Positions 655 through 4,330 of a stretch of DNA of 4,330 nucleotides are shown piece after piece. The notes beneath the pieces are model-generated. The model saw nothing but the letters and a program-made list of their open reading frames with translations, was not told the DNA's origin and did no database searches. The stretch comes from a virus (Duplodnaviria > Heunggongvirae > Uroviricota > Caudoviricetes). Positions within the stretch are counted from its first letter, which is position 1. The number at the start of each line of letters is the position of its first letter. Location: IMG/VR virus record IMGVR_UViG_2663763282_000003, positions 1 through 4,330 of that record; one strand, given 5' to 3'. A program made the translations under genes and the position numbers.

Positions 655-1133
655 AACAAATGACACTAATTGAGATGGATGGTTTTCTGAAAGGTAAATG
701 CATCCCACGAGATTTAAAGGTTAACGAAACAAACGCTGAATATCTTGTGCGTAAGTTCGGTGAACTTGAATCAAAACTAGAAACGGCGTTGCGGGAGTGT
801 CGTTCTGCTGGAATCACGATTGATAACCTTGAGGCTAAATGCGCGAAGATGGCTGCTGAAAATACCTCACTTAAGCAATCTGAGAAGGAATTTAATGACT
901 TTTGTCGTGAGGAGTTTAGCGAATGGGAAGATGATGTTACTGAAACTCCAGCCACCGATGCTTTCCTGGCTGAAGTACGGGCGCAGGGGGTAGAGATGTA
1001 CGCAGATAACCTCGACAACGGAGCAGACGACGCAGAACGAGGTGGTTTTGATTATGCCGTTAAGTTTCTACGCAGTGAAGCATCTAGTGTACGTTTGTTC
1101 GCCGACCAGCTTCGCAAAGGAGGCAACCAGTGA
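651..1133 (+). CDS. hypothetical acidic coiled-coil protein (160 aa)
   Basis: ATG at 651 with GGAG at 638-641; stop TGA 1131-1133 overlaps the GTG start of the next gene (GTGA). Translation has a heptad-like central segment ([43 protein letters not shown]) and an acidic C-terminal half; hand count about 33 D/E versus 22 K/R. Confidence 0.6.
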
Positions 1134-2026
1134 GCAAGATTGACTATCAGGCACTGCGTGAGGCGGCAGAAAAAGCAACGTGTGGTGAGTGGTCGCTCGA
1201 ATATGGAGAGGGCCAATTTGATGGTGATGATGCGCTAATTCATCGTGACGTTGTTGGATATCTTCCCATTTGCAGAATTGAAGGAGCGCATCCTGAAAGC
1301 GGTTTCGATGAAGATTTCCAAATAGAACAGCAGGCCAATGCTGAATTCATCGCCGCAGCCAATCCAGCTACCGTCTTGGCGCTGCTGGATGAGCTGGAAA
1401 GAAACCAGCAATACATCAAACGCCGTGACCAGGAGAACGAGGAGATTGCGTTAACGGTAGGGAAGCTGCGTGTTGAGCTGGAAGGCAAAGACAAGCTGAT
1501 TGCAGAGCTTGGAAAACAATGCGCCGAATGGGAGCGAAAAGCATTAAGCAACTTTGAAGAGTGTGCTGCGATGGCTGAACGTATCGAAGAGTTGCAGACA
1601 AAATCTGCACCAGATTCGTTTGGCATCATCGGTGAAAATATTCGAACACAGGATAATCGAATAACGTCAGACCCTATGTTTTGTGTGTATCAAAAGCGCG
1701 AAATCGTTGTTGATGCTGATTATGACTATGACCGGATTGTCTGGGTTGATGAAGATGGCAATGAAGCCAATAAACGCCAAAGTCGTCGTCTCGAACTACT
1801 TCACGAAAACTTTCGAGAGCCACCAGAAAAATGGCGGCGCGTTGCTGTGAAAGATATTGATGAATTCGTTACCTGCTGTTTCACCGAACAGGGTTGTAAA
1901 GACTACCTGGCAGCCAATGGTCACAATCTTCGCTTGCCATTTATATATGTAAATGGCGGTTTCAGGAACGCTGAATATATCGGCATAAGAAACTGGCTTG
2001 CTGGCATTCGCATCAAAGGAGAGTGA
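1130..2026 (+). CDS. Ead/Ea22-like family protein (298 aa): conserved N-terminal module, central coiled coil, long C-terminal domain of unknown function
   Basis: GTG at 1130 preceded by a strong AGGAGG at 1118-1123 (6-nt spacer). N-terminus [21 protein letters not shown] resembles the conserved N-terminal signature of lambdoid Ead/Ea22 proteins as recalled from memory. Central region (about aa 85-150) is coiled-coil-like. Position upstream of an Ea8.5-like gene, xis and int mirrors the lambda ea22-ea8.5-xis-int order. Confidence 0.75.
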   Translation: MSKIDYQALREAAEKATCGEWSLEYGEGQFDGDDALIHRDVVGYLPICRIEGAHPESGFDEDFQIEQQANAEFIAAANPATVLALLDELERNQQYIKRRDQENEEIALTVGKLRVELEGKDKLIAELGKQCAEWERKALSNFEECAAMAERIEELQTKSAPDSFGIIGENIRTQDNRITSDPMFCVYQKREIVVDADYDYDRIVWVDEDGNEANKRQSRRLELLHENFREPPEKWRRVAVKDIDEFVTCCFTEQGCKDYLAANGHNLRLPFIYVNGGFRNAEYIGIRNWLAGIRIKGE

Positions 2027-2228
2027 GATGAGCAGGAATACGGGTTTGTAAAAGATAACGCTTGTGAAAATGCTGAATTTCGCGTCGTCTTCACAGCGAT
2101 GCCAGAGTCTGTAGTGTCAGATGATGACCGTACTCAAACATCGGGTTGAGTATTATCTTACTGTTTCTTTACATAAACATTGCTGATACCGTTTAGCTGA
2201 AACGACATACATTGCAAGGAGTTTATAA

Positions 2229-2510
2229 ATGAGTATCAATGAGTTAGAGTCTGAGCAAAAAGATTGGGCGTTATCAATGTTGTGCAGATCCGGTGTCTTG
2301 TCTCCATGCAGACATCACGAAGGTGTTTATGTAGATGAAGGTATAGATATAGAGTCGGCATACAAATATTCCATGAAGGTTTATAAGTCTAATGAAGACA
2401 AATCCCCATTCTGCAATGTGCGAGAAATGACTGATACCGTGCAAAATTATTATCATGAGTACGGTGGAAACGATACTTGCCCTCTCTGTACAAAACATAT
2501 AGATGATTAA
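2229..2510 (+). CDS. Ea8.5-like small cysteine/histidine-rich (putative zinc-binding) protein, 93 aa
   Basis: ATG at 2229 with AAGGAG at 2216-2221 (7-nt spacer); stop TAA 2508-2510 followed by a hairpin plus T-tract. Translation carries Cys at 19, 27, 62, 85, 88 (C-terminal CPLC) and His at 29, 30, 76, 90. Same length (93 aa) and same position relative to Ea22 and xis as lambda Ea8.5, as recalled. Visibly lower GC than flanking genes (about 38% versus 53% in 60-nt samples counted by hand). Confidence 0.6.
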   Translation: MSINELESEQKDWALSMLCRSGVLSPCRHHEGVYVDEGIDIESAYKYSMKVYKSNEDKSPFCNVREMTDTVQNYYHEYGGNDTCPLCTKHIDD

Positions 2511-2527
2511 ACCAAATATTACATAAC

Positions 2528-2557
2528 AATCCTCGCATTCGCGGGGATTTCTTTTAT
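2528..2557 (+). terminator. intrinsic (rho-independent) terminator-like hairpin after the Ea8.5-like gene
   Basis: 5' arm AATCCTCGC (2528-2536), loop ATTC (2537-2540), 3' arm GCGGGGATT (2541-2549): 9 bp with one G-U pair, followed by TCTTTTAT (2550-2557). Confidence 0.6.
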
Positions 2558-2598
2558 CTGAACTCGCTACGGAGGGTTTTGTTTTATGGAGATGATAA

Positions 2599-2766
2599 AT
2601 GCACTTCCGAGTTACAGGTGAATGGAATGGAGAACCATTCAACAGAGTTATCGAAGCCGAGAACATCAGCGACTGCTATGACCACTGGATGCTGTGGGCG
2701 CAGATAGCACATGCAGACGTAACCAATATTCGAATTGAAGAACTGAAAGAACACCAAGCCGCCTGA
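2599..2766 (+). CDS. small hypothetical protein (55 aa)
   Basis: ATG at 2599 with GGAG at 2588-2591 (7-nt spacer); open frame MHFRVTGEWNGEPFNRVIEAENISDCYDHWMLWAQIAHADVTNIRIEELKEHQAA to TGA 2764-2766. Below the length cutoff of the supplied ORF track. Stop codon lies in the loop of the next terminator hairpin. Confidence 0.4.
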   Translation: MHFRVTGEWNGEPFNRVIEAENISDCYDHWMLWAQIAHADVTNIRIEELKEHQAA

Positions 2767-2780
2767 TGGCGGTTTTTTAT
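2756..2780 (+). terminator. intrinsic terminator-like hairpin
   Basis: Stem CCGCC (2759-2763) / GGCGG (2768-2772), loop TGAT (2764-2767), extendable by flanking A-U and G-U pairs, followed by six T (2773-2778). Confidence 0.6.
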
Positions 2781-2792
2781 TGGAGACAAGAA

Positions 2793-3137
2793 ATGTCAGA
2801 TTTGGCTATGAAGGTTTTGAAATGGCAATCGACTGGCGATGTCGGCATCAGTAGCGCAACTCTTGCCTCAATCGCATGTGGACTGAAAAAGAATATCTAT
2901 GGTCATCACTTCGGCGCTCCACATGACGCAGCCGATTTCAGACGATGCGTTGCACTTGTTGAGCAGATCCCAGAAATCAGAGATTCATTCGACAAGGTTG
3001 CAAAGCGCGTTCCGGCATTCAAAGGCATCCTCAACGAATGGGATTCCCTCGTTGATCTGTTGAAGTCTGAAATGAAGATACACGGAAACAAAGCACCAGA
3101 GACTTACAGAAGAATTAGCGAGTTACGCAAGGACTAA
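2793..3137 (+). CDS. hypothetical protein (114 aa), function unknown, immediately upstream of xis
   Basis: ATG at 2793 with GGAGA at 2782-2786 (7-nt spacer). The in-frame ATG at 2766 used by the ORF track lies inside the upstream terminator hairpin and has no Shine-Dalgarno. Stop TAA 3135-3137. No family recognised. Confidence 0.6.
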   Translation: MSDLAMKVLKWQSTGDVGISSATLASIACGLKKNIYGHHFGAPHDAADFRRCVALVEQIPEIRDSFDKVAKRVPAFKGILNEWDSLVDLLKSEMKIHGNKAPETYRRISELRKD

Positions 3138-3142
3138 CCACA

Positions 3143-3161
3143 GCCTCATACTCGATGAGGC
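3143..3161 (+). terminator. possible weak terminator or RNA hairpin
   Basis: 7-bp stem GCCTCAT (3143-3149) / ATGAGGC (3155-3161), loop ACTCG; the downstream T-tract is poor (CTGTTCATT), so termination efficiency is doubtful. Confidence 0.3.
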
Positions 3162-3227
3162 CTGTTCATTGCTCAATGATATCCAGACCTACCGCAATAA
3201 TACCAATCCAATAAATGGAGATTCCAG

Positions 3228-3575
3228 GTGGAAGAAGAAATCTTCACTCGTGAAGAGGCAGCGTCGTATCTGAAGGTAGACAAAGGCACTATCACGCAGT
3301 GGATACGAAGTGGACGACTTCAGGCCGCAAAGATAAATCCAGATAAACCTAAAAGCCCATATCGCATTTGCAAGTCAGACTGCATTGCGGCGCTTAAGTC
3401 TGTGAGACACAATAGCGCGGTGAATGCGGTTGATGTGCAGGAGGTTAAAGCATGTCAATCAAACTACGCGGTGGCACGTGGCACTGCGATTTCGTCGCGC
3501 CAGATGGATCAAGAGTTAGACGCTCTCTTGAAACATCGGACAAAAGGCAAGCGCAAGAACTTCACGATCGTCTGA
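3228..3575 (+). CDS. xis: excisionase (Xis; P22-type excisionase/DNA-binding protein), 115 aa
   Basis: GTG at 3228 with GGAG at 3217-3220 (7-nt spacer). Small basic protein with an N-terminal HTH-like segment (FTREEAASYLKVDKGTITQWIRSGRLQAA). Sits directly upstream of and overlapping the integrase gene, as in P22-type int-xis modules. Confidence 0.75.
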   Translation: MEEEIFTREEAASYLKVDKGTITQWIRSGRLQAAKINPDKPKSPYRICKSDCIAALKSVRHNSAVNAVDVQEVKACQSNYAVARGTAISSRQMDQELDALLKHRTKGKRKNFTIV

Positions 3576-4330
3576 AAGCAGAAGCGTGGAGAGTAAAAAA
3601 TCTCGGGGAATCACCGAAAAAGCTATTCAAGGAAGCCTGCATACGGTGGCTGCGTGAGAAATCGGATAAGAAGTCCATTGATGATGACAAGAGCATTATA
3701 TCGTTCTGGATGTTGCACTTCAGAGAAGCCATTCTCTCTGACATAACAACAGAAAAAATAATGGAGGCGGTAGACGGGATGGAAAACCGCCGCCATCGCC
3801 TGAACTGGGAGATGAGCCGGGACAGGTGTTTGCGACTTGGCAATCCGGTGCCGGAGTATAAACCAAAGCTTGCAAGCAAAGGAACGAAGACGAGGCATCT
3901 GGCAATACTTCGCGCCATTCTCAATATGGCTGTTGAATGGGGATGGCTTGACAGGGCACCCAAAATATCAACACCACGCGTTAAGAATGGACGCATCAGA
4001 TGGCTTACAGAGGAGGAATCGAAGCGCCTGTTTGCAGAAATTGCTCCTCACTTCTTCCCTGTGGTCATGTTTGCAATCACGACAGGCCTTCGCCGTTCCA
4101 ACGTTACAGACCTTGAGTGGTCACAGGTCGATCTGGATAAGAAAATGGCATGGATGCACCCTGATGAAACAAAAGCTGGCAATGCGATCGGAGTTCCTCT
4201 TAACGAAACCGCATGCCAGATATTAAGAAAACAGCAGGGGCTCCATAAGAGATGGGTATTTGTCCACACCAAACCTGCCTACCGAAGCGACGGAACAAAA
4301 ACAGCAGCGGTAAGGAAGATGAGAACCGAC
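3452..4330 (+). CDS. int: phage tyrosine integrase (site-specific recombinase, P22-type), 3'-partial: N-terminal 293 codons in window
   Basis: ATG at 3452 preceded by AGGAGG at 3439-3444 (7-nt spacer). Frame stays open to the last base of the window (879 nt, no stop). Translation MSIKLRGGTWHCDFVAPDGSRVRRSLETSDKRQAQELHDRLKAEAWRV... has an arm-binding-type N-terminus and the box I motif region TTGLRRSN containing the first catalytic Arg. Downstream catalytic residues would lie beyond the window. Confidence 0.9.
   Translation, partial: MSIKLRGGTWHCDFVAPDGSRVRRSLETSDKRQAQELHDRLKAEAWRVKNLGESPKKLFKEACIRWLREKSDKKSIDDDKSIISFWMLHFREAILSDITTEKIMEAVDGMENRRHRLNWEMSRDRCLRLGNPVPEYKPKLASKGTKTRHLAILRAILNMAVEWGWLDRAPKISTPRVKNGRIRWLTEEESKRLFAEIAPHFFPVVMFAITTGLRRSNVTDLEWSQVDLDKKMAWMHPDETKAGNAIGVPLNETACQILRKQQGLHKRWVFVHTKPAYRSDGTKTAAVRKMRTD

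Follow-up and report, generated by a model that had tools for sequence, protein, structure and literature searches.

The gene at positions 2793–3137 of the window (the whole 4,330-nt stretch of viral DNA that was analysed) lies in a variable slot ahead of xis, and its protein belongs over its whole length to PHROG 1229, which also includes HK022 gp32, 434 gp33 and mEp213_026. From the distribution and conservation of the family, its product may be directed at the host, in counter-defence or host takeover, a reading to which we give a probability of about 40%. An accessory role in excision, the other function that had been suggested for the gene, is not supported. We propose that the gene is an accessory cassette, self-contained and not essential, located at the distal end of a lambdoid early-left (pL) operon.

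The window is the distal part of such an operon, with every gene on the + strand, and contains the following features:

186–479, + strand: abc2, anti-RecBCD
651–1133, + strand: phrog_614 protein
1130–2026, + strand: Ead/Ea22-like protein
2229–2510, + strand: ea8.5
2599–2766, + strand: lambda orf55 homologue (phrog_676), the upstream neighbour of the target gene
2756–2781, + strand: hairpin (2756–2775) with T-run, terminator-like in a terminator scan, ending the orf55-like gene
2782–2786, + strand: Shine-Dalgarno sequence GGAGA, its GGAG ending 7 nt before the ATG
2793–3137, + strand: target gene, 114 codons, ATG start, TAA stop at 3135–3137
3143–3161, + strand: downstream hairpin, a perfect 7-bp stem without T-run or U-tract
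3190–3194, no strand: right mosaic joint
3228–3575, + strand: excisionase of the P22/SfX type, 115 aa, GTG start (Pfam HTH_17, 1.4e-8; phrog_2907 'excisionase', 1.5e-52)
3452–4330, + strand: tyrosine integrase, 5' part, running off the window (Pfam Phage_integrase; phrog_10426)

The excisionase ORF overlaps the start of int and is homologous to the P22-type Xis of SPN9CC, and the counterpart of the integrase in mEp213 is annotated with a thrW-type att site. The Ead/Ea22-like protein begins at a GTG that overlaps the stop codon of the ORF before it, and is composite: residues 2–147 form an N-terminal Ead/Ea22 domain, the C-terminal half matches a different PHROG (phrog_3205), and lambda Ea22 is only patchily homologous.

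The strong ribosome-binding site and clean reading frame reported in the initial annotation were both borne out. GGAGA is kept in 434 and HK022, while lambda and HK620 are without it and diverge exactly there. The 114-codon frame gave dN/dS values of 0.03–0.27 in 30 pairwise comparisons of close relatives, and it is kept as coding among relatives that fall into 2,805 clusters; the ORF is a genuine gene under purifying selection. A mechanical ORF list offers an alternative in-frame ATG at 2766, which would add nine codons to give a 123-aa version. Because this extension falls within a hairpin and T-run that are also found in lambda, which is without the gene, and because conservation among the homologous proteins begins at MSDLAMK, the supported start is that of the 114-aa form and not that of the 123-aa form. 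Some gene callers give the longer form (P0001, P0002, P0007), and in the window the sequence TGATG at 2764–2768 is made up of the orf55-like stop overlapping the ATG of that form.

Hairpins had been described on both sides of the gene and these were recovered, the upstream one (2756–2775) with a deltaG of -13.4 kcal/mol and a z-score of -3.5 against shuffled sequences, and the downstream one (3143–3161) with values of -11.9 and -4.0. The latter is kept in 434, HK022, HK75 and mEp213, and in 434 and HK022 it accompanies the gene. A third hairpin is present at 2528–2549 (deltaG -13.1, z -5.5), so that one stands after each of ea8.5, the orf55-like gene and the target gene, with T-runs following the first two; terminator-like sites in the region 2000–3600 number six, against 1.2 expected. 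A consensus scan found no sigma-70-like promoter upstream of the target gene, although a weak or activated promoter may escape such a scan. The Rfam scan of the window returned no RNA family, and a cII-type box of the form TTGY-N6-TTGY was not found near the gene in the window. Lambdoid pL transcription is N-antiterminated. Given the lambdoid organisation of the operon and the lack of a promoter-like site, expression is probably delayed-early, by antiterminated read-through of the preceding hairpin, with translation starting from the gene's own ribosome-binding site, as read from the sequence.

Mosaic joints lie exactly at the edges of the target gene, which behaves as a cassette. On the left side, lambda and HK620 are about 96–100% identical to the window up to 2782 (BLAST mapping) and beyond this go directly to the cII box and xis or the int promoter region; the window, 434 and HK022 go on with the Shine-Dalgarno sequence and the target gene. 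On the right side, the nucleotide identity to 434 and HK022, which is 95.5–95.7% over the segment 2523–3193, stops at 3193. Past this point, 434 and HK022 have a second similar hairpin with a T-run, a cII box and a lambda-type xis, and the window has a P22-type xis. The initial annotation had regarded the position before xis as a variable cargo slot of lambdoid phages, which agrees well with its contents: it is empty in lambda, holds eaC in P22, holds the target gene in 434, HK022, mEp213 and SPN9CC, and carries a deletion scar in HK75. In SPN9CC (L006, 3854–4204), an unannotated P22-type excisionase ORF of 116 aa lies directly after the family member and overlaps int.

The target gene is dispensable, being absent from lambda and HK620, deleted in HK75 and truncated in Stx phages. 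HK75 keeps a window-like xis/int but only the last 49 nt of the gene, and Stx phages of the Traversvirus group have only the first 56–79 codons, which are fused to, or lie beside, an adenine DNA methyltransferase gene. The scar in HK75 (L013, 1747–1830) joins the first 32 nt of the Ea22-like gene to the 3' end of the target gene, corresponding to window positions 1131–1162 and 3089 onward, and a 3' remnant like it (query 297–345 only) occurs in some E. coli genomes (H225). The truncated copies of phi315 (L143, 3001–3168) and phiSTEC801-Stx1a (L144, 3001–3234) have the methylase now in the slot after the orf55-like gene. A second boundary sequence is found before the cII box and xis in 434 (L005, about 3905–3945) and HK022 (L014, about 5465–5505), so that in these two phages the cassette is bracketed by two similar sequences of the form GCCGC-loop-GCGGC, T5–6, xTTG, the first of which precedes the gene (window 2756–2782); lambda has just one. 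Recombination between repeats of this kind could account for gain or loss of the target gene.

[quoted passage not shown] In temperate enterobacterial phages it is consistently found directly before xis, integrase is its most frequent neighbour (13 of 71 loci, see below), and the exo-xis region taken together is reported to influence lysogenisation and induction (PMC3824215). However, the check for co-occurrence with particular int/xis types, which had been suggested along with a role in excision directionality, showed independent assortment. Among 43 enterobacterial loci, the sequences after the target gene fell into eight classes (P22-type, 13; AlpA-like 66-aa, 8; lambda/HK022-type, 7; a 97-aa type, 2; and four singletons), which include at least four clearly different xis/int modules. 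There is no co-inheritance with a cognate integrase: HK75 retains the same xis/int without the gene, and family members occur in replicons without Int/Xis, namely Sergei, the protelomerase phage N15, Mu-like transposable phages and megaplasmids. Nor was a helix-turn-helix or winged-helix domain (Xis, HTH_17 or AlpA type) detected in the target protein by Pfam, NCBIfam or PHROG matches, while the ORF at 3228–3575, a bona fide Xis, does match. Since the gene assorts independently of xis/int and is missing from HK75, the excision reading is unsupported, and a function in excision, integration or lysogeny is very improbable. The joints and the varied downstream modules place the gene on the operon side of the joint rather than within the recombination module, and for annotation purposes adjacency to xis should not be taken to imply a role in excision.

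That no family could be named for the protein, as stated at the outset, holds for Pfam, NCBIfam, PADLOC and the PDB, in none of which a sequence search matched, whether the query was the single protein or one of two family profiles (for PADLOC, nothing at E<=1 for the target protein), but it does not hold for PHROGs. Residues 1–114 align to profile positions 1–113 of the 116 positions of phrog_1229 (E 1.7e-51), a family listed as being of unknown function, and the same profile was matched by all 36 of 36 diverse relatives. A match to a characterised housekeeping or structural family was likewise not found in Pfam, NCBIfam or the PDB. The DNA of the gene is 97–98% identical to 'hypothetical protein' genes of mEp213 and mEp043 (98%), the Stx phages 1717 and 2851, and others, and the protein is 96.5–99% identical to those of mEp043, mEp213, Huey, Stx2a phages and 434. 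No credible functional name was seen on homologues among the matches listed; the labels 'lipoprotein' (AP012530) and 'sigma54-dependent transcription regulator', in one record each, were judged to be spurious. No papers were found that name phrog_1229, the exo-xis papers do not treat the target gene, and the supplements of accessory-gene screens and of a Vibrio anti-defence study contained neither its sequence nor its motif.

The family is large and widely distributed. A profile search with ten full-length relatives against 1.84 billion cluster representatives (clusters at 50% identity) recovered 2,805 proteins at E<=1e-3 and 623 at E<=1e-10. The target gene was matched in 940 of 5,426 complete E. 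coli genomes (17%), with up to four copies per genome, and 915 genomes carry at least 80% of it; among the matches listed, the full-length ones are labelled 'hypothetical protein' throughout. In sequenced phages, tblastn found 275–286 records with a family member, including lambdoid and P22-like phages, about 150 Vibrio phages, and phages of Aeromonas, Arthrobacter and Clavibacter. One member is carried by the Salmonella phage Sergei (Sashavirus), a virulent-type phage, the complete annotation of which includes its own DNA polymerase, primase and helicase and has no integrase, excisionase or repressor annotated. A back-translated motif pattern found every known locus and at least 120 further loci in IMG/VR. 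Some of the IMG/VR loci are from Mu-like phages with the family gene between MuB/DUF3164 and GemA/Mor; Mu itself has no homologue. Plasmid records with a family member number 84, of which 69 are from Pseudomonas, and the two that were examined are megaplasmids of about 400 kb. One Pseudomonas megaplasmid of the IncP-2 type (about 410 kb), pNY11173-DIM (L141), carries its member at 5995–6351, adjoining a site-specific DNA methyltransferase, a second N-6 methylase and an SOS-response-associated peptidase.

The target protein (114 aa, 12.8 kDa, pI 8.95) is all-helical and is predicted to be a compact, soluble domain of seven helices, the AlphaFold model having a pLDDT of 93.5. Foldseek searches of BFVD returned five uncharacterised viral proteins with a probability of 1.0 and query TM-scores of 0.67–0.95. 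One match, A0A3G5AI15 of Sylvanvirus, from a giant virus metagenome (probability 1.0, query TM-score 0.70, 20% identity), could represent either true breadth of the family or a phage or bacterial contaminant. No likeness in sequence or fold to a characterised anti-defence, takeover or enzyme family was found, and solved structures such as Acb2, Tad1/2, Ocr, AsiA, Gam and others showed no resemblance; the helical model is a confident one, and the predicted fold is without a solved relative.

Across 146 diverse domains of the family, P43, D48 and C52 are conserved in 100%, D45, R51 and W83 in 99%, G18, S20, S21, L55 and P60 in 97%, and W11 in 96%. These give the family motif W..G..GxSS ... PxDxxD(F/L)xRCxxL....PE ... 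W(D), conserved at 96–100% and with every residue present in the target protein. The spacing from P43 to W83 is fixed and the loop at 29–42 varies in length. In the model, S20-S21 is at the N-terminus of helix 2, and P43, D45, D48, R51 and C52 are at the start of helix 3. The near-invariant polar residues, along with W11 and W83, most likely make up a single conserved site for binding or catalysis, the clustering of these residues in space being inferred, although the S-S pair, P-x-D, P-E and A-P, all at helix N-termini, may have a partly or purely structural role. Net charge varies greatly within the family (pI 4.5–10, median 6.5), and because overall charge is not conserved a local functional site is favoured over a general DNA-mimic or basic DNA-binding surface.

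Several variants of the domain were seen. P0067 (333 aa) contains a tandem duplication, the first copy being degenerate and without GxSS and D45, an arrangement that may fit a dimeric unit. The N-terminal extensions differ in kind, some being zinc-ribbon-like and one Ead/Ea22-like. Among the 20 longer relatives scanned, the only named partner was a CCA-adding enzyme, in P0165 (558 aa; L019), where PolyA_pol, RNA-binding and HD domains are followed by the family domain at the C-terminus. This protein is from a single 1.9-kb contig, too thin a basis for a functional clue, and could be an artefact of gene calling or recoding. A reading of the sequence as HhH or HhH-GPD (G-x-S-S-x-T-h-A, with P-x-D about 22 residues on) was also tried and found no profile or fold match.

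As a discrete cassette bounded by hairpins, with one homologue labelled as a lipoprotein (see above), the gene might be taken for a prophage-expressed moron that benefits the lysogen, as a lipoprotein or through superinfection exclusion or defence. This is largely refuted and its chances are minimal. A promoter-like site is lacking ahead of the gene and the downstream hairpin has no U-tract; the N-terminus is charged and predicted to be helical, without a signal peptide, and the putative lipobox Cys29 is present in only 21% of members, for which reasons the lipoprotein reading was rejected. There was also no PADLOC match, and the family extends to a virulent-type phage.

The surroundings of family members were surveyed at 71 non-redundant loci (4 kb to each side of the gene, after clustering of the targets at 80% identity). 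After integrase, the most frequent neighbours were SSB, DUF551 and helicase (6 each), GemA (5), and YqaJ, RdgC, MT-A70, DUF3164 and MuA (4 each), and no fixed partner gene was found. Outside the lambdoid phages the gene often comes after genes for recombination or replication: an exonuclease in Sergei, RusA in Vibrio phage K249, DUF3799/RecT/RdgC in L007, SSB and an Rv2179c-like exonuclease in L009, and an exonuclease-subunit gene in N15. Together with the recurrence of SSB, YqaJ, RdgC and helicase as neighbours, and the presence of abc2 in the operon of the window, this is consistent with a helper of phage DNA metabolism that modulates recombination or replication, with SSB, a nuclease or a recombinase as possible binding partners. 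We consider such a function unlikely, since no single recombination partner occurs in more than 6 of the 71 loci, close relatives with the same recombination genes can do without the gene, and the protein has neither likeness to a known DNA-metabolism domain nor, as a family, a conserved net charge.

The suggestion that the protein is host-directed or anti-defence, made in the initial annotation, fits the distribution and context of the family and is retained here as a putative function. The early and accessory surroundings of its members also hold counter-defence genes, such as abc2 in the window, Sequestin in L009, a Lar-like gene in Vibrio phage K249 and orphan DNA methyltransferases on the megaplasmid. 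This proximity is weak evidence, as phage early regions hold many kinds of genes; recombination and replication genes are equally frequent neighbours. In the case of L009, a 50-kb metagenomic phage contig, the gene directly downstream of the family member (6548–6742) matches Pfam Sequestin (PF21825). If the protein is host-directed, our best guess is that the conserved polar site would bind, sequester or modify a target molecule. This molecule should be common to many bacteria, because the family has no fixed partner gene, assorts freely from xis/int, and is found in proteobacterial and actinobacterial phages as well as on megaplasmids. Candidates could include a conserved host protein, a nucleic acid or a nucleotide-derived molecule.

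Among known systems, the closest are the proteins of HK022 (gp32, AUM59808), 434 (gp33, UMO75297) and mEp213 (mEp213_026, AFM76366) and the homologues of Stx phages 1717 and 2851, which are the same protein, of equal length and with 95–99% amino acid identity. Their genes likewise stand between the orf55-like gene and xis, with the same hairpins on either side, and are all annotated as 'hypothetical protein', but the downstream xis/int differs, being lambda-type in 434, HK022-type in HK022 and P22/SfX-type in the window. N15 gp42, which contains the family domain at residues 57–157 (E 5.7e-21), and the extended forms (phrog_15291 and phrog_4212, matched by 36/36 and 33/36 of the diverse members, respectively) have the conserved domain and motif in common with the target protein but differ in having N- or C-terminal extensions. 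The N15 gene also differs in its setting, a protelomerase phage-plasmid with no xis/int nearby.

More distant comparisons rest on position or on kind. The lambda genes ea8.5, orf55, ea22, orf60a, orf61 and orf63 belong to the same operon segment, and like the target gene are small, early and dispensable in the laboratory (PMC8614690), but the lambda exo-xis accessory genes are unrelated to it in sequence and predicted fold, lambda itself being without the gene; the published exo-xis phenotypes and models leave it out (PMC8614690). EaC of P22 occupies the same slot, directly upstream of a P22-type xis, but is a protein of 211 aa unrelated to the target (hhalign probability 0.2%). The 'sponge' proteins Acb2, Tad1, Tad2 and Sequestin are alike in kind only, as stand-alone proteins of about 100 aa with a patchy, early and accessory occurrence, and a gene for Sequestin adjoins one family member.

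A bolder form of the host-directed reading, which we regard as rather doubtful, is that PHROG 1229 and its relatives (about 2,800 clusters) represent a new class of counter-defence or takeover proteins, with a fold unseen among solved structures and an S-S/D/D/R/C site acting on a common bacterial target, possibly a nucleotide-derived immune signal or a conserved host protein. If true, this would explain why the family is present in phages of several phyla, both temperate and virulent-type, as well as on megaplasmids and in 17% of complete E. coli genomes.

The copy in the window is an ordinary one, near-identical genes having already been deposited as 'hypothetical protein', and the wider interest lies in the family. 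PHROG 1229 is a large family under strong constraint, its fold can be predicted with confidence, and it has neither a Pfam entry nor a structural relative that has been solved. The family is found in about one in six complete E. coli genomes, Stx-converting prophages included. It is therefore a reasonable target for study, and identifying the molecule on which it acts would allow thousands of phage and prophage genes to be annotated at once.
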